Below are positions 2,663 to 16,272 of a stretch of 17,175 bases of DNA, one piece after another. The position numbers and the translations under genes were made by a program. Under the pieces are notes generated by a model. That model saw only the letters and a program-made list of their open reading frames with translations, made no database searches and had not been told where the DNA came from. Source of the stretch: Candidatus Thorarchaeota archaeon (GTDB lineage Archaea; Asgardarchaeota; Thorarchaeia; Thorarchaeales; Thorarchaeaceae); NCBI GenBank assembly GCA_003345555.1, contig PRDJ01000032.1, forward strand, positions 1-17,175, written 5' to 3'. The first letter of the stretch is position 1; each line of letters starts with the position of its first letter.

Positions 2663-3008
2663 TTCGTCATTCTCCTATCATGGCCAGGCGCGCATCTCCT
2701 ATGCCTTATCTCCCGACCTCGCGGATGACCTGAAAAAGGTTATGCCTAACCATCGAGTGCCCTCTTGCTAGGATGATTGTATCACGGGATCTCAACTTGG
2801 CAGATTGCATGTGCTATGGAGAAGGCCCGTGAGAAGTGATCAATTTGATTCGTTGTCTTGATCGATAATCAACTCTCATCACAAGTCGAGGCTGTCGGAA
2901 GCATGGCTACCGCACATCTTATTACAAGGAGCGACATTCTTGTGGGTGGTATTACAAGCATTACTTATCATACCGACCCAGAAAGCGGCAGGAGAAGGCT
3001 TGAAGATC

Positions 3009-3983
3009 ATGACTATTGCCATCTATGAAAGCGCGCTGATACGTCACTTCAATACTAGAAAGGAGGCCTTGCGCGCCTGGGAAGAGAAGATCGGCTGTCG
3101 CTCGTCTCCTTTCAGAGGTTACAAGATGCCTGACTCCCGACTCTACATTGAGCAGCCAGACTTCTTGGATAGCATAGTCGACTTGGTACTAACGAATGAG
3201 CGGCATATATTCATCCGTGGACCAGTAGGCTCCGGGAAGAGTACGCTCATGCTACTAGCACTCAGAGATCTTCCGACGCTTATGGACCGGAGAGGCAATA
3301 GATTCGCAGTTGGATATGTGGGAATGAGTGGGCTGTATGAGAAGCAGATGGCTTCGGCAATCGCTGACGCTCTAAGAATCAAATACAAGAGATCATGGGA
3401 AACCAATGAAATCATAGAAGCGGTATCAGCTGAGTGCGTGAGAAGGTATATCGAAGAGAAGTCGAGAACTGCACTCTTTATTGAGGACGTAGCGGACAAC
3501 CAAGAAGCTGCATTTCACAAGATTCGATACTTGGCGGATCTTCCTACCGAAGAAATGAAGGAAAGCTACAAGGGTGCATTGGATGAGCCCATTGTGACTC
3601 TGATCATGAGTGGGACAATGGAATACTGGAATGCGATGCTGAACTTCCTTCCTCAGATAGCTGATAGGACAGAGCCCCTAGATGTTCCCGCGCTTGACAA
3701 TCAGAAAGCAAAGGAGTTCGTAGCAAGACGGATTGCCTACGCACAGGGAAAGATTGATGTCTTTGATAAAGACAGTTTTGAGATTCACCCGTTTACAGAC
3801 AAAGCAATAGAGTTGATCAACACGGCTGCAAAAGGAAATCCACGCGATATTCGTATGCTAGCACGCGGTTGTGAACAAGTTGCAGCTGATGAATTCAGCA
3901 AGAACGGAGACCCGACGGTCACTCAGGGTATTGCGAAACTTGTAACGGAGGCTTATGCCGCGTTATTGAAGGAGGTGCACTAG
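3009..3983 (+). CDS. ExeA/AAA_22-like AAA+ ATPase
   Basis: N-terminal IGCRSSPF...PDSRLY (ExeA-like GLxxxPF...PD), Walker A GPVGSGKST, Walker B region ALFIED, IMSGTME, PQIADR and lid FTDKAIELINTAAKGNPRDI. Start set at ATG 3009 (or TTG 3000) after GGAGAAGG, rather than 2940. Confidence 0.85.
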   Translation: MTIAIYESALIRHFNTRKEALRAWEEKIGCRSSPFRGYKMPDSRLYIEQPDFLDSIVDLVLTNERHIFIRGPVGSGKSTLMLLALRDLPTLMDRRGNRFAVGYVGMSGLYEKQMASAIADALRIKYKRSWETNEIIEAVSAECVRRYIEEKSRTALFIEDVADNQEAAFHKIRYLADLPTEEMKESYKGALDEPIVTLIMSGTMEYWNAMLNFLPQIADRTEPLDVPALDNQKAKEFVARRIAYAQGKIDVFDKDSFEIHPFTDKAIELINTAAKGNPRDIRMLARGCEQVAADEFSKNGDPTVTQGIAKLVTEAYAALLKEVH

Positions 3984-4304
3984 GTGAGCGTCCTCGGGAA
4001 ATATCGACGCGAGTCAGGAAGAGAGGAGGAACAGAAGACAGAGAGCGCAACGAAGGTCCGAGAGATTCAGAGAGCCGGTGCAGAGAAGAAGAGAGACGGG
4101 ACGGTCAGACAGGCAGAGGCTGTACCAAACAATGAACGAAGAAGCCCGATAGTTTCATTCTCGATACCAACTGATCTCAGGGCATGTCTTCAGGCAATAA
4201 GGAAGGACAAGTCAATCAACTTGAGCATGTGGGTCGAGAAGCGGCTCCGGGAAGCAATACTCCATGAGTTTCCGGGTATAGCTGAGAAATACTTGCAAGG
4301 CTGA
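3984..4304 (+). CDS. Small protein with charged, probably disordered N-terminus and C-terminal ribbon-helix-helix DNA-binding domain
   Basis: The GTG start directly abuts the ATPase TAG, with a strong RBS GGAGGTG at 3971-3977. SPIVSFSIPTDLRACLQAIRKDKSINLSMWVEKRLREAI fits the beta-alpha-alpha RHH pattern. Confidence 0.8.
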   Translation: MSVLGKYRRESGREEEQKTESATKVREIQRAGAEKKRDGTVRQAEAVPNNERRSPIVSFSIPTDLRACLQAIRKDKSINLSMWVEKRLREAILHEFPGIAEKYLQG

Positions 4305-12218: not shown

Positions 12219-14108
12219 TCAGTCCTCCCGGTTTATGGCACCTTTAGGACATACAGCCGCACAGATACCACACTCGTTGCACAGAGTCTCATCAACCACG
12301 GCCTTGTTTGTCTCAGAATCAAAATACATCGCCGGACATGAAAGCCGATGAAGACACCGTTTGCAGGCGTTACATAGATCTGAGTTGACTCGATAGGGAT
12401 GCGGCGGAGTTCCGGTTTGTTGCCTATCGATGGCTGCAAGAAGTGCACATGGTTCTCTGGACACCAACACGGCCGGTTGTTTGTTTTCTCTCACCCATAC
12501 AACCATCTCTCGGATCTCTGACACCAAGGTGGCCATGGAATCAAACGGTCGTACCATTCTTACATAGTTCACACCTAAGCCCTTGCACACATCAACTATG
12601 TCAATCGGACTAACCTTCTCTTGCATCCCTGTAAGGCCCGTACCAGGATGTGGCTGCTGTCCTGTCATCGCTGTAGTACGATTGTCAAGCACGACCACGC
12701 TGATTGGGTGTCTGTTGTACACCGCGTCAACTATGCCCGGAAGGCCTGAAGCGAAAAACGTGCTATCGCCAATTGTGGCTACGACGTCCTGATCAGTAAC
12801 CCGTGCTATTCCACAGGCAGTAGTGATTGACGATCCCATGTCAAACAGTATGTCTGCTGTCTCGAGAGGGGGAGCAATGCTCAGCGTATAGCAGCCTATG
12901 TCAGATGGGTAAATCGCCTTTCCCCTAGTAGCCACTCGAATAGCATAGTACGTCGCCCTATGGGGACAGCCAGCACACAGCAGTGGTGGTCGGGACGGTA
13001 ATGAGGACAATTCCTCAGCTTTCGAGTCAATTTGCTGCCAGTTAATAGGTGTATTACGATTCAGAATCTTGGCCAATCCCTCTATCACTGTTCTGGGGGT
13101 GTATTCGTAAGTCCTAGGAAAGTAACCTTGTTCCTTGCCCAAAATTGTGACTACTATGTGGTTCAGTTGTGCGACCCGGCGCACCTGGGTTTCCAAGAAG
13201 GGTTCCAACTCCTCTACCACTACCACTTTCGTGTGCTCTTGCAAGAAGTCGGAGATCTTCCGTTCTGGCAGAGGGTGCGTCATTCCCAGTTTGAGTATCT
13301 CGGCCTTTAGACCGAGGGTTGAGACTGCCTCAATGGCATAGTTGAAGGCCACGCCACTCGTGATTATGCCAAGCTCGCCTTCACCGATTCTATAATTCAG
13401 GGATGTCTCCTCAGATATTCTTCTGGCCTTCTCGATTTGCTGTAGTAACCAAGGATGCCGCTTGTATGCTACCGACGGAATGGGAACGAATCTGAATGGA
13501 TCTTTGTCGAATTTCACAGTTGAAACACGGTCTCGCATAGGACCTAGCTCTACTGGTGCTCTCGTGTGACTGACACGAGTAGTCGTACGGTAGAGAACGG
13601 GGAGCTCGAGTTTCTCGGATATATCAAAGGCCTCAATGAGCATGGATTTGGCTTCGACAGGATCAGAAGGTTCCAACATTGGTGTGTTGGCCATGAGAGC
13701 ATAGTAGCGCGAGTCGTTCTCGTTTTGCGAGCTCCACATACTTGGGTCGTCTGCGACCACCACCACCATGCCTCCGCGCACTCCTACGTATGCTAGCGAG
13801 AGGAACGGGTCGGCCGCTACGTTTAGTCCCGGGCCTTTACAGGCGATCATTGACCTCACTCCAGCGACCGCGGCAGCACCAGCAACCTCCATTGCGACCT
13901 TTTCGTTTGTACTGAATTCGAAATAGAAATCGGGAATACGTGTAGCTATAGCTGTCAGATTGTTGCCGATTTCACTGCTCGGCGTCCCAGGATATACTGC
14001 CACCAGACGTACCCCTGCTTCCAACACGCCTCGAGCTATTGCTTCGTTGCCCAGAAGCAGTATCCTCTTCCCCGGGTTATCCTCAAGCAGTTCAGTAGGT
14101 TTGGTCAA
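12219..14108 (-). CDS. iorA: Indolepyruvate:ferredoxin oxidoreductase alpha subunit
   Basis: LLGNEAIARG, NEKVA, GLNVAADP, DDPSMWSSQNE, CAGCPHR, DIGCY, IGDSTF, LDNRTTAMTGQQP and a C-terminal 2x[4Fe-4S] motif. Recognisable IorA sequence begins near TTG 14108 (629 aa); the extra 97 codons in the ORF track up to 14399 are not IorA-like. Confidence 0.95.
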   Translation of the reverse strand: MTKPTELLEDNPGKRILLLGNEAIARGVLEAGVRLVAVYPGTPSSEIGNNLTAIATRIPDFYFEFSTNEKVAMEVAGAAAVAGVRSMIACKGPGLNVAADPFLSLAYVGVRGGMVVVVADDPSMWSSQNENDSRYYALMANTPMLEPSDPVEAKSMLIEAFDISEKLELPVLYRTTTRVSHTRAPVELGPMRDRVSTVKFDKDPFRFVPIPSVAYKRHPWLLQQIEKARRISEETSLNYRIGEGELGIITSGVAFNYAIEAVSTLGLKAEILKLGMTHPLPERKISDFLQEHTKVVVVEELEPFLETQVRRVAQLNHIVVTILGKEQGYFPRTYEYTPRTVIEGLAKILNRNTPINWQQIDSKAEELSSLPSRPPLLCAGCPHRATYYAIRVATRGKAIYPSDIGCYTLSIAPPLETADILFDMGSSITTACGIARVTDQDVVATIGDSTFFASGLPGIVDAVYNRHPISVVVLDNRTTAMTGQQPHPGTGLTGMQEKVSPIDIVDVCKGLGVNYVRMVRPFDSMATLVSEIREMVVWVRENKQPAVLVSREPCALLAAIDRQQTGTPPHPYRVNSDLCNACKRCLHRLSCPAMYFDSETNKAVVDETLCNECGICAAVCPKGAINRED

Positions 14109-14207
14109 GTTATCATGCGCCCTATGGAGAACCGGTCCCAGAAGAGCTTGGACAGGTGATTGTGTATCTATCTTATGGTATAGAGAACAAAGACGCACAC
14201 AAGGATC

Positions 14208-14219
14208 CAAACAAAAACA
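14208..14219 (-). terminator. U-rich tract (TGTTTTTGTTTG on minus strand), copy 1 of an exact 12-bp direct repeat
   Basis: CAAACAAAAACA occurs at 14208-14219 and 14380-14391. Oligo-U tracts act as archaeal terminators; function here is inferred. Confidence 0.35.
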
Positions 14220-14249
14220 AACTGAGGAAGACCACGGAGAGCTGGAGAC

Positions 14250-14267
14250 TTGGAACACGTGTTCCAA
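14250..14267. repeat. 18-bp perfect palindrome, copy 1 (TTGGAACACGTGTTCCAA)
   Basis: Exact self-complementary 18-mer, preceded by CTGGAG. Confidence 0.9.
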
Positions 14268-14342
14268 CCACTCGACCAACTGATCGGCGAGTCGGGGTCG
14301 GCTGGAGCTTCTAGTTACTCCCCTCTGCTTCCACTGGAGCAT

Positions 14343-14360
14343 ATGGAACAGATGTTCTAA
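14343..14360. repeat. Palindrome copy 2, degenerate centre (ATGGAACAGATGTTCTAA)
   Basis: GGAACA and TGTTC half-sites conserved with the central 2 bp changed; also preceded by CTGGAG. Confidence 0.8.
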
Positions 14361-14379
14361 CGCGATAATAATACTACTA

Positions 14380-14391
14380 CAAACAAAAACA
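14380..14391 (-). terminator. U-rich tract, copy 2 of the 12-bp direct repeat
   Basis: Identical to 14208-14219; lies downstream of the 14509-14799 gene on the minus strand. Confidence 0.35.
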
Positions 14392-14400
14392 GATGACATT

Positions 14401-14424
14401 CCGCTTCAGAAGCGGCTATTTATA
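14401..14424 (-). promoter_or_regulatory. Candidate TATA box (TATAAATA, 14424-14417) immediately followed by palindrome CCGCTTC-N-GAAGCGG (14401-14415)
   Basis: Near-consensus archaeal TATA on the minus strand with CGATAAG upstream, and a 7-1-7 perfect inverted repeat abutting it. Confidence 0.5.
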
Positions 14425-14487
14425 CTTATCGACCCACATCTAACCAATATGCATTCTCCTTCGACCGGAAATGATGGGGCCTGGGAG

Positions 14488-14505
14488 TTGGAACACGTGT
14501 TCTAA
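14488..14505. repeat. Palindrome copy 3 (TTGGAACACGTGTTCTAA)
   Basis: One mismatch from copy 1; separated by 3 bp from the stop codon of the 14509-14799 gene; preceded by CTGGGAG. Confidence 0.9.
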
Positions 14506-14508
14506 ATC

Positions 14509-14799
14509 CTAATCTAATTGTCTGCTTACCTCGAATGTTTTGGTGATCAGGATGTCTTGGTACGAGTGGAACAGTGCTTCGAATGCTCCTCTGTATTCCG
14601 AAGGCACCAGTATTGCAGATGCAGTGACTGCAACAGAGCCTGAGCACTCTTCTAGTAAGCCTGGCTTTCGCTTCTCTCTATACCCTCCTTTCGTTCTCCA
14701 AGAATACATGAACCCATAGAGCTCCTTTGTAAAAGAGACTCTTCTAGCGTTGGTCTCGCGCGCCCGTTTGCAGTCGTACACATATAGGTAGTAAACCAT
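14509..14799 (-). CDS. Small basic protein with putative Cas2/VapD-like ferredoxin fold
   Basis: The N-terminal strand ending in YD (MVYYLYVYD), helix NARRVSFTKELYG, GLL...ASAILVP, helix and terminal strand TFEV mirror Cas2/VapD topology. No other cas genes in the window. Confidence 0.6.
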   Translation of the reverse strand: MVYYLYVYDCKRARETNARRVSFTKELYGFMYSWRTKGGYREKRKPGLLEECSGSVAVTASAILVPSEYRGAFEALFHSYQDILITKTFEVSRQLD

Positions 14800-14814
14800 T
14801 GCAATCTCAAGCGC

Positions 14815-14832
14815 TTAGAACACGTGTTCCTC
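14815..14832. repeat. Palindrome copy 4 (TTAGAACACGTGTTCCTC), inverted relative to copy 3
   Basis: 14815-14830 is the exact reverse complement of 14490-14505; it lies 15 bp upstream of the ATG at 14799. Confidence 0.9.
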
Positions 14833-14958
14833 TTTCAGGGCGAGTATTACAAAGCCGTGTATATCAAAAGCTTAAAGCCACAACAACTGGTCGCTAGCGG
14901 CGTCCGGCGACAGCAGCTATGAGCGTCAGCACAGCGATTCACACGAGGAGGGATCTCC

Positions 14959-16272
14959 GTGAATGTAATCGGCCTGAGAAAAGAGGAGAAACCTTTCGAA
15001 ACACGCGTTCCGGTAATACCAGAACATGTTGACATGCTCAAGAGCAGACATAATATCAACTTCATAGTCGAGCCGAGTGAAAACCGTGCATTCAACGCCG
15101 AAGAGTACATGGAAGCCAAGGCTCAGATACTGCCCTTGAAGGGTAGTTCGGCACAAGTTGTTCTAGGAATAAAAGAGATGCCCGACGATTTCTTTGAGCG
15201 TGGCAAGGCATACGTCTTCTTCAGTCATACCATAAAAGGACAACCGCACAACATGCCGATGCTAAGAAGCATCATGACTGCAAAGGCGACACTCATAGAC
15301 TACGAACGAATACTAGATGACAAGGGCAAGAGACTCATTTACTTTGGAAACTGGGCCGGAATGGCTGGTCTCTCCGACACACTCTATATTCTGGGACAGC
15401 GTCTCGAAGTTGAACACATGAGACCAAACCCGTTCAAGCATATGAAGCGCACACTCGAGTGCAAGGATCTTTCCGAGCTAAAGGACTCCTTCAGAGCATT
15501 AGCCAAACAAATAGAGATCGAGGGATTACCAAAGCGACTACGTCCCTTTGTCATTGGCTTCGCCGGATACGGAAACGTCTCTCGAGGAGCCCAAGAGCTG
15601 TTTGATTTGCTTCCTCACGAATCGGTTCAACCAGATGAGCTGGCGCAGACAACTTCACAGCAGAATCTATTGTACAAGTCCGTCTTCAGAGAGGAACACA
15701 TGGTAGAGCCTATCGACCCGACTGCTAAGTTCAATCTCCAGGATTACTATAGCTATGGCAAGGGGAAATACAAGCCCGTCTTCGAACGCTACGTCCCATA
15801 CCTCACGGTTCTACTGAACTGCATTTACTGGTCTGACAAGTATCCCCGATTGGTATCAAAAGACTTCATCAAGGCACACTGGAAGGACAAGCACCGAAGG
15901 CTCCGTGTCATAGGCGACATTTCCTGTGATATCGAAGGTGCCATTGAGTTCACACTTCAGGCTACCAACCCTGCAGAACCGGCTTTCACTTACCTCATCA
16001 AGAAAGACCGAATTACCTCCGGTGTATCTGGAGAAGGACCAGTTGTGATGGCAGTAGATAATCTGCCGTCCGAGCTCCCAAGAGAATCGTCAACCTCTTT
16101 CAGTGCATCTCTTCTCGACTATATACCAATACTGGCAAATGCAGATTTCACCGTGCCTTTCGACCAACTTCACCTACCCCGAGAATTGAAGGATGCAGTG
16201 GTCGTATACCAAGGCAATCTAACCGAGAACTACGAATACCTTCGAAAGTACACAGAACAACTAGGAGGATAG
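14959..16272 (+). CDS. Lysine-ketoglutarate reductase / saccharopine dehydrogenase (lysine-forming) family; homologue of the N-terminal LKR domain of AASS
   Basis: GLRKEEKPFETRVP, GIKE, FFSHTIKGQPHNMPML, LIDYE, FGNWAGMAG, GYGNVSRGAQE, IGDISCD, AVDNLPSELPRESS. RBS GAGGAGG at 14945-14951. Confidence 0.9.
   Translation: MNVIGLRKEEKPFETRVPVIPEHVDMLKSRHNINFIVEPSENRAFNAEEYMEAKAQILPLKGSSAQVVLGIKEMPDDFFERGKAYVFFSHTIKGQPHNMPMLRSIMTAKATLIDYERILDDKGKRLIYFGNWAGMAGLSDTLYILGQRLEVEHMRPNPFKHMKRTLECKDLSELKDSFRALAKQIEIEGLPKRLRPFVIGFAGYGNVSRGAQELFDLLPHESVQPDELAQTTSQQNLLYKSVFREEHMVEPIDPTAKFNLQDYYSYGKGKYKPVFERYVPYLTVLLNCIYWSDKYPRLVSKDFIKAHWKDKHRRLRVIGDISCDIEGAIEFTLQATNPAEPAFTYLIKKDRITSGVSGEGPVVMAVDNLPSELPRESSTSFSASLLDYIPILANADFTVPFDQLHLPRELKDAVVVYQGNLTENYEYLRKYTEQLGG

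Follow-up and report, generated by a model that had tools for sequence, protein, structure and literature searches.

A small Asgard-specific gene and its palindromes at a predicted chromosomal replication origin of Thorarchaeota

The stretch of DNA analysed here, referred to below as the window, comprises the whole of a contig of 17,175 bp (C32; PRDJ01000032.1) from the 2.28-Mb metagenome-assembled genome (G000), 93% complete, of an uncultured member of the Thorarchaeota. Thorarchaeota belong to the Asgard archaea, the closest known prokaryotic relatives of eukaryotes. Our subject is a small gene in this window, encoding a protein of 96 amino acids, together with a palindromic sequence, designated P1, that recurs on either side of it and the spacer that separates it from its neighbour iorA (indolepyruvate:ferredoxin oxidoreductase alpha). 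On its other side the small gene has a divergently transcribed neighbour that we refer to as LKR (lysine-ketoglutarate reductase), the name used in a preliminary description of the window made from the sequence alone. The order along the window is P1-c, ORB-R, a core of ~120 bp, ORB-L, P1-b, the small gene, P1-a and the divergent LKR gene, where ORB denotes a predicted origin recognition box (Table 1).

It was the palindromes that first drew attention to the locus. The preliminary description reported a 291-bp gene enclosed by perfect 16-bp inverted repeats, 3 bp past its stop codon and 15 bp ahead of its start codon, and both the coordinates and the spacings hold: in a sequence check, the 16-mers at 14490–14505 (GGAACACGTGTTCTAA) and 14815–14830 (TTAGAACACGTGTTCC) are 100% complementary. 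Each arm is itself a palindrome, with a 12-bp core (GAACACGTGTTC) inside an 18-bp dyad (TTRGAACACGTGTTCYAA), and because the arms are self-palindromic, any two copies look like inverted repeats. What was described as an inverted repeat is two copies of one palindromic dyad site rather than a pair of terminal repeats. The two further copies noted downstream are also present, one as an exact 12-mer (14253–14264) and the other with two mismatches (14346–14357), and another look-alike with two mismatches lies within the LKR coding region (14999–15010). The window holds five P1 matches at up to two mismatches where 0.67 are expected, a number reached in 0 of 200 shuffles, and three of the six exact P1 12-mers in the whole 2.28-Mb genome are at this locus. 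The repeat observation is real and non-random. The P1-like site at 14346–14357 is not kept in a locus from the same genus (L005) and is probably non-functional.

How much of the DNA between the small gene and iorA is free of coding sequence turns on the iorA start codon. The longest iorA open reading frame (ORF), which begins with an ATG at 14399, has its Pfam POR_N domain only from residue 124 onwards, and relatives align from residue 1 of a shorter form that begins with a TTG at 14108. On this comparison the TTG is probably the true start and the ORF from ATG-14399 an artefact, and with iorA starting at 14108 the spacer (14109–14508, 400 bp) is non-coding. The long ORF (12219–14399) overruns the region described next by ~290 bp, and an annotation from ATG-14399 would bury the predicted origin in coding sequence.

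Alignment of this spacer across relatives reveals a fixed order of elements, namely P1, the box ACCCCTTCATTTCCAsTGGAA, an AT-rich core, the box TCCAsTGGAAATGAAGGGGT and P1 again. The two Thorarchaeia boxes are inverted copies of an origin recognition box (ORB), reading ACCCCTTCATTTCCACTGGAA, and have in common with ORB1 and ORB2 of Pyrococcus furiosus a 14-nt core, CATTTCCACTGGAA, and a string of C residues. In gel shifts, Cdc6/Orc1 is bound by oligonucleotides comprising P. furiosus ORB1 and ORB2, ...CCCCCAGAGTTTCATTTCCACTGGAA... (PMC1904270). All 31 loci measured have two ORBs in inverted orientation on either side of an AT-rich core of 120–130 bp. The GC content of this core has a median of 30.5%; the window's core has 37.7%, the genome as a whole 51%. 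A strict ORB pattern has only two occurrences in the entire 2.28-Mb genome, and in the closed Ca. Odinarchaeum yellowstonii LCB_4 genome (G340) it has one in the 800 kb sampled, at the orthologous site. We regard it as very probable, from this architecture and its conservation, that the 400-bp gap between the small gene and iorA is a chromosomal replication origin of the form ORB–DUE–ORB (DUE, the AT-rich duplex unwinding element), and we infer that the origin fires at this site. The preliminary description missed this decisive context, that its palindromes flank an ORB–DUE–ORB origin lying between gene and iorA, and the unit that it flagged is best read as the gene-proximal half of a predicted Thorarchaeota chromosomal replication-origin region.

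Table 1. Positions of the genes and predicted sequence elements of the locus in the window
Feature	Position	Strand	Remarks
iorA (indolepyruvate:ferredoxin oxidoreductase alpha)	12219..14108	minus	Pfam POR_N; alignment of relatives
P1-c, perfect 18-bp palindrome TTGGAACACGTGTTCCAA	14250..14267		outside ORB-R; ~145 bp upstream of iorA start
ORB-R CCCCTCTGCTTCCACTGGAG, C-string and dyad	14320..14339	plus	inverted with respect to ORB-L
AT-rich inter-ORB core, candidate duplex unwinding element	14340..14457		37.7% GC; contains TATAAATAG and a T-run
P1-like site GAACAGATGTTC	14346..14357		2 mismatches; inside AT-rich core
ORB-L	14458..14480	minus	reads GCCCCATCATTTCCGGTCGAAGG; dyad degenerate here, 3 mismatches to TTTCCACTGGAA
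P1-b, palindrome TTGGAACACGTGTTCTAA	14488..14505		3 bp past stop codon; just outside gene-proximal ORB
Small gene, 96 amino acids	14509..14799	minus	Asgard-specific family
P1-a, operator-like palindrome	14815..14832		core GAACACGTGTTC at 14818–14829; 18–30 nt upstream of small gene start codon
GTATTAC (motif GTAWTAC)	14844..14850		~22 nt upstream of P1-a
LKR, divergent gene with alanine dehydrogenase/PNT domains	14959..16272	plus	Pfam; synteny

The small gene that adjoins this predicted origin belongs to a family of its own. The 96 amino acid protein has no match in Pfam, NCBIfam or PDB sequence searches, but an exhaustive HMMER search uncovers a small family of 14 clusters at 50% identity, and a profile search 167 clusters at 90% identity, all named ones being 'hypothetical protein' entries of Thorarchaeota or other Asgard archaea. 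Sequence searching with the Odinarchaeum protein gave no homologues outside the Asgard archaea. Within the Thorarchaeia, the gene is present in 73 of 87 genomes, as a single copy in 72 and as two copies in one; if only high-quality genomes are considered, the figure is 22 of 24. Five of the gene-less genomes are also without a match to the neighbouring LKR gene, so that the locus there is probably unassembled rather than empty, and these genomes offer no information on P1 in the absence of the protein. Synteny and orientation are constant in 33 related Thorarchaeia loci, two of which end short of iorA: LKR lies upstream and is divergent, and the small gene is followed by a spacer of ~400–540 bp and then iorA. 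The small gene is genuine and part of the core gene set of the Thorarchaeia.

This constancy bears directly on one reading offered in the preliminary description, that of a non-autonomous mobile or invertible cassette; bounded by terminal inverted repeats, such a cassette would be comparable to a miniature inverted-repeat transposable element or an inverton. The perfect 16-bp repeats that bracket the gene would suit such a cassette, as would the behaviour of the adjoining ORB–core segment between P1-b and P1-c, which is found in either orientation depending on the clade. It is flipped in one subclade of genus g11 and in two other lineages, which, when mapped on an iorA–LKR tree, implies ~2–3 inversions in Thorarchaeia evolution, and the orientation can be read from a conserved asymmetric block, TATAAATAGCTGTTTCnGAAGC...TTATCTCCATTTTT, in the inter-ORB core of the window and 31 related loci. 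The small gene itself, however, keeps a constant position and orientation throughout the 33 loci, and 72 of the 73 genomes that carry it have a single copy; no empty site was found between iorA and LKR in relatives, the gene-less genomes just mentioned having no LKR match either. Moreover, unrelated promoters carry further copies of the arms, each of which is a palindrome in itself, and no recombinase gene is present among the window ORFs scanned. A cassette is refuted by these observations to the point of being scarcely credible. The flips of the ORB–core segment are in keeping with rare recombination events in a symmetric origin, between its inverted copies of the ORB or of P1, and do not point to a fast switch.

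Members of the small-gene family are also encoded in the Asgard families designated here f2, f15, f16, f25, f26 (Odin-like, and including the closed Odinarchaeum genome) and f27. The gene was absent from 27 f8 genomes and gave one marginal match among 118 f21 genomes. Proteins from f2, f15, f16, f25 and f26 are 35–40% identical, and in each of these families two inverted ORBs enclosing an AT-rich stretch follow the gene, within ~20–220 bp of its stop codon. The small gene is thus physically linked to an ORB pair across six Asgard families, the Thorarchaeia included. Neither iorA nor LKR is found near the gene in f15, f16, f25 and f26, whilst f2 keeps iorA; since the ORB pair is kept where other neighbours differ, the linkage of gene and predicted origin is older and tighter than that with any other neighbour. 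In f2, f15, f16 and f26 an orc1/cdc6 gene is located 1–2.5 kb from the orthologous site, and together with the ORB pair this makes a textbook origin neighbourhood. The place of orc1/cdc6 in these other Asgard families is filled in the Thorarchaeia by LKR, and comparison of the gene orders indicates that orc1/cdc6 was relocated in the Thorarchaeia while the small gene stayed with the ORBs. In our judgement, a functional link between the small gene and the origin is probable.

Two observations on individual genomes may be recorded here. In the closed Odinarchaeum genome (L040, 619354–625632), a perfect inverted ORB pair at ~622.65–622.87 kb directly follows the small gene, OdinLCB4_003355, with a cdc6 gene 1.5–1.7 kb away. 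Coordinate +1 of the published sequence was set elsewhere, a local minimum of cumulative GC skew having been taken as the potential origin, and the presence of an ORB pair with cdc6 at ~622.6 kb bears on that placement. The single-contig Thorarchaeia genome G058 contains an extra single ORB (CCCCTTGGTTTCCAGTGGAA; C1:1811731) ~4 kb from the origin pair.

The P1 palindrome accompanies both the gene and the boxes. It is found 20–36 nt upstream of the gene start in 32 of the 33 related Thorarchaeia loci, and in the Thorarchaeia it also lies within a few tens of bp past the stop codon and beyond the distal ORB, at times accompanied by an additional copy. When the flanks of more distant homologues were inspected, as the preliminary description had proposed, similar palindromes (GAACA-YR-TGTTC variants) were found at the same places in f2, f15, f16 and f25, and none in f26. 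Across the six families, P1 is just outside the gene-proximal ORB in five, outside the distal ORB too in the Thorarchaeia and their sister family f2, and in the small gene's own promoter also in f16 and f25. A second motif, the 7-nt palindrome GTAWTAC, lies at position −52 ± 5 relative to the small gene start in most of 34 loci (window included); it occurs at 0.04 per kb genome-wide, is often 12–25 nt from downstream P1 copies and is possibly a promoter element or the site of a second factor.

Thorarchaeia genomes carry 2–17 copies of P1, compared with 0–3 for a reversed control. Elsewhere, counts are 22–23 in f25 and 6–9 in f27, and gene-less families have mostly 0–3 with a maximum of 5, such that counts of six or more are seen only in families having the gene (f1, f25 and f27). 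These figures suggest that P1 enrichment and the gene occur together, though related genomes are not independent and the counts do not amount to a statistical test. The preliminary description had allowed that the motif might be a genome-wide operator unrelated to the gene: it does recur around the genome, but it stays tied to the small gene. The two f25 genomes G335 and G336 (1.4–2.0 Mb) have 22–23 exact P1 cores (GAACATATGTTC) against 0 for the reversed control, which would make f25 the best lineage in which to define a P1 regulon. The sites examined in G335 have an extended TTAGAACATATGTTCTAA-type palindrome; most are intergenic and many are near gene starts. P1 lies upstream of the methionyl-tRNA synthetase (MetRS) gene in the genome of the window (C17:25708; L002), in G018 (L093) and in f25 (G335 C2:5936; L100), a hint that P1 may have a small conserved regulon apart from the origin. 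The genes adjacent to P1 in f25 and the Thorarchaeia (MetRS, orotidine monophosphate decarboxylase, an ATP-grasp protein and several unknowns) have no coherent theme.

A further locus in the genome of the window combines P1 with an ORB. At C10:82632–82786, a full 18-bp P1, an AT-rich, TATA-like box and an inverted ORB (CTCCACTGGAAACGGTGGGGT) are found together (P1/ORB at 82632 and 82767), and orthologous loci in G058, G010 and G014 have the same P1–ORB order. By these sequence comparisons P1 behaves as a putative protein operator that recurrently accompanies Orc1/Cdc6 boxes. The second P1–ORB locus (C10:82632–83205; L001:1502–2075) is situated ahead of, or within the 5′ end of, a gene for a 155 amino acid protein in a conserved three-gene cluster; the 155 amino acid protein has no kinship with the 96 amino acid protein.

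What might the small protein itself be? AlphaFold2 models it with a pLDDT (predicted local distance difference test) score of 93.8 and the order beta1-alpha1-beta2-beta3-beta-beta-alpha2-beta, giving a ferredoxin-like core from which a basic beta-hairpin protrudes at residues 29–47. The protein has a pI (isoelectric point) of 9.1, and six of the 19 hairpin residues are Lys or Arg. Residues R20, F23, K25, G29, Y32, W34, G47, S61 and F77 are invariant in the family and D9, which ends the N-terminal strand (YVYD), is nearly so. A homodimer is supported by modelling: the dimer model scores 0.56 against 0.02 for the best control, a mark that 20 of 30 proteins solved as one-chain pairs attained, as did 1 of 23 solved as single chains. 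Agreement between runs extends to at least 97% of contacts, the partner pLDDT is at least 87, and the interface lies in strands at residues 4–9, 58–62 and 85–96.

Searches with the modelled fold return only generic ferredoxin-like similarity, with a top Z score of 7.8 to unrelated proteins, and this outcome has to be set against the proposal in the preliminary description that the gene encodes a Cas2/VapD-like nuclease or toxin acting on repeat-containing RNA or DNA, in the manner of a type III toxin–antitoxin or proto-CRISPR system. The protein does share certain attributes with Cas2. Its N-terminal strand ends in a nearly invariant Asp, the best match of the family profile in the PDB is a Cas2, though a non-significant one (E 0.64), and the Cas2 structures 3exc and 1zpw reach a Z score of 6.7. 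Residues 7–9 and 58–62 are at the modelled dimer interface, a placement that resembles the Cas2 dimer arrangement. Yet a ferredoxin-like fold, an N-terminal strand ending in a conserved Asp and a modelled homodimer are common to many unrelated ferredoxin-like proteins, and the Z scores for Cas2 and for VapD (6.0) compare with 7.8 for the unrelated proteins at the top; among AlphaFold database (AFDB) clusters, a Cas2 entry comes at rank 30 with a TM (template modelling) score of 0.50. The Cas2 Pfam model (PF09827 CRISPR_Cas2) has no match in 69 family members at E values up to 10. The same model finds true Cas2 proteins in 18 of the 87 genomes, at other loci, and never picks out the small gene, and profile–profile comparison with an alignment of Thorarchaeal Cas2 yields a probability of 0.5%. 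Residue 60, an Asp in most of the family, is Ala in the window's genome.

The genomic context is equally unhelpful to a Cas2 or toxin. Hidden Markov models (HMMs) for Cas1 and Cas2 have no match in the 93%-complete genome, and a Pfam scan of the larger window ORFs agrees with the preliminary description in finding no cas1, integrase, transposase or antitoxin domain. Specific kinship to Cas2 or VapD is unsupported by HMM, profile–profile or structural scores. A VapD or toxin–antitoxin module is likewise rejected: the neighbours are LKR and the predicted origin with iorA, there is no antitoxin among them, and the gene has a near-universal core distribution unlike that of defence or toxin genes. 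Taken with the core-gene distribution, these results make a Cas2/VapD-like activity on repeats highly improbable.

A different role is suggested by the top Foldseek match among the PDB and Swiss-Prot models, the C-terminal domain of LrpC, which is weak (E 0.012–0.015, TM 0.44). The small gene and its palindromes could constitute a transcriptional switch for amino-acid catabolism, controlling LKR/saccharopine dehydrogenase and iorAB, with the ORBs being incidental; the small protein would then serve as a free-standing RAM/ACT-type domain that senses a ligand and works with a DNA-binding partner. Thorarchaeia synteny, which puts P1 in both divergent promoter regions, is in keeping with this. Outside f1 and f2, however, it is the ORB pair that adjoins the gene and not iorA or LKR; at the second locus P1 is again coupled to an ORB, and the other P1 targets seen are not catabolic. 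We therefore consider both the switch and the ligand-sensing domain improbable.

How, then, might the small protein act at the predicted origin? In the mechanism that we propose, the two inverted ORBs would be binding sites for the Orc1/Cdc6 initiator and the core between them would be where the DNA melts. P1 (TTRGAACAYRTGTTCYAA) would be a dyad-symmetric protein-binding site, one copy of which lies between the likely promoter elements of the small gene and its start codon. A dimer of the small protein would grip P1 by means of its two basic beta-hairpins and in so doing repress the gene's own promoter; at the origin, a dimer on P1 would occupy the outer flanks, where it might influence the loading of Orc1/Cdc6 or MCM or shield the origin from transcription. 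The second conserved P1–ORB promoter fits cooperation of the small protein with Orc1/Cdc6. The suggestion of an autoregulated gene that binds its own palindromes was made in the preliminary description and survives as the best hypothesis, having gained comparative support, while binding itself is something that we infer. We would put the chances of an origin-linked module of this kind, with the dimer bound to P1, acting as repressor of its own promoter and covering the ORBs' outer flanks, at about even. That the 96 amino acid protein is the P1 binder falls a little short of that, and we advance more tentatively still the view that it is an unrecognised Asgard-specific origin factor, a dimer that binds P1 sites flanking Orc1/Cdc6 boxes, autoregulates and cooperates with Orc1/Cdc6.

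A number of observations weigh against this interpretation. Some concern the origin. In the genome of the window both orc1/cdc6 genes are on other contigs (C50 and C30), and of the two boxes ORB-R is good and ORB-L degenerate, the latter coming close to the consensus in locus L005, from the same genus, and in other relatives. In family f27, which carries the gene and shows enrichment of P1, no ORB pair adjoins the gene, and relaxing the ORB pattern brought out no convincing pair in the f27 genomes G341 and G342. GC skew offers little help: it is uninformative in the closed Odinarchaeum genome (40 samples of 20 kb) and can be read on one side only in G023, where the contig ends 18 kb past the locus, and in G058 the change of sign is weak and non-significant (+0.010 to −0.012, p = 0.13), with cumulative skew showing a peak (a local maximum) at the locus and no dip.

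Others concern the identity of the P1 binder, and these count equally in favour of an alternative in which the origin is correctly identified but P1 is bound by a different factor, for example the second of the Orc1/Cdc6 paralogues or a transcription factor of a conventional type. In that case the small protein could bind the ORBs, unwound DNA or RNA, or contact Orc1/Cdc6 or MCM, and merely be regulated through P1. The strongest point is provided by f26, which keeps the gene beside the ORB pair and yet has neither P1 at the locus nor P1 enrichment, so that any origin-linked role of the protein in this family needs no P1. P1 also lies ahead of unrelated genes, such as that for MetRS, in two families, where a transcription factor encoded elsewhere could bind it, and the genome has two orc1/cdc6 genes to choose from. 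In addition, we know of no case in which a ferredoxin-like fold reads a DNA palindrome, nor is this fold known as a sequence-specific reader of double-stranded DNA. Set against these points, the promoter of the gene itself contains P1 in 32 of the 33 related Thorarchaeia loci and likewise in f16 and f25, strong P1 enrichment is restricted to families that have the gene, and the modelled symmetric dimer has two basic hairpins that would suit a dyad site. On balance, we think it somewhat unlikely that another factor is the P1 binder.

In the library covered by a full-text search, neither ORB origins nor origin accessory factors are described for Asgard archaea. The P1 counts across the whole phylum, the second P1–ORB locus and the linkage of gene, ORBs and cdc6 over six families are added here, as are the tests of fold, Cas2 kinship and dimerisation of the 96 amino acid protein. 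The locus supplies a defined and conserved candidate Asgard origin sequence, comprising the ORB pair, the AT-rich core and the flanking palindromes, and with it a candidate for a small accessory protein, amenable to expression and to in vitro tests together with Orc1/Cdc6 and MCM. If the proposed role is true, the protein would be an origin-licensing or origin-boundary component without a described counterpart in other archaea, and its gene would be linked to the origin more tightly than orc1/cdc6.

Two other features of the window may be mentioned. A conserved motif, ATACCAYAAGAYTGATACA, at 14161–14181 is found ~55–100 bp upstream of the iorA start across Thorarchaeia loci and is probably an iorA promoter element or regulator site. 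At 2940–4304, a gene for a 347 amino acid protein with weak matches to AAA/NB-ARC-type ATPases is followed without a gap by an ORF of 106 amino acids that has no Pfam match.

Of the systems with which the protein and its locus can be compared, Cas2 and VapD resemble the modelled protein in size (~90–100 amino acids), in the predicted beta-alpha-beta-beta-alpha-beta core with a first strand ending in Asp and in dimerisation through the C-terminal strand. They differ in that HMM and profile–profile comparisons reveal no similarity and that the context is not one of cas or antitoxin genes but of an origin-linked core gene. The closest predicted folds, with TM scores of 0.78–0.84 over ~90 residues, are matches from the ESM Atlas and AFDB clusters to archaeal proteins of 88–123 amino acids and to C-terminal domains of Pol-beta-type nucleotidyltransferases. 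These have the same predicted fold, come from Aenigmatarchaeota, Hadarchaeota and Methanobacteriota and are functionally uncharacterised; sequence searches gave no link between their clusters and the 96 amino acid family.

The locus as a whole is most readily compared with the ORB-type oriC of Pyrococcus and with oriC1 of Sulfolobus/Saccharolobus. The predicted Thorarchaeia origin resembles these in its inverted ORBs, in the same dyad core (CATTTCCACTGGAA) and C/G-string and in an AT-rich putative unwinding region, and in related Asgard families orc1/cdc6 is adjacent as well. Unlike them, it adjoins the gene for the 96 amino acid protein rather than orc1/cdc6, and an extra 18-bp palindrome, for which the full-text search found no description in the literature, brackets both the ORBs and the gene.

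For the protein, the closest functional analogy is with UBP, the ucm-binding protein of Sulfolobus oriC1. UBP is a basic protein of 111 amino acids that dimerises via its C-terminal strand (PMC12141716; PDB 9EFD–9EFF). Its beta-hairpins read the short ucm motif, which lies within the origin; UBP also binds at many other places in the genome and contacts MCM (PMC12141716). The motif itself is 11 bp long, non-palindromic and located between the ORBs, where it is bound by a UBP monomer (PMC12141716). P1, by contrast, is an 18-bp dyad outside the ORBs, and the UBP gene has not been reported as origin-linked. UBP gave no match to the 96 amino acid protein in PDB sequence searches and is not among the 50 best structural matches; the resemblance would be one of function only.

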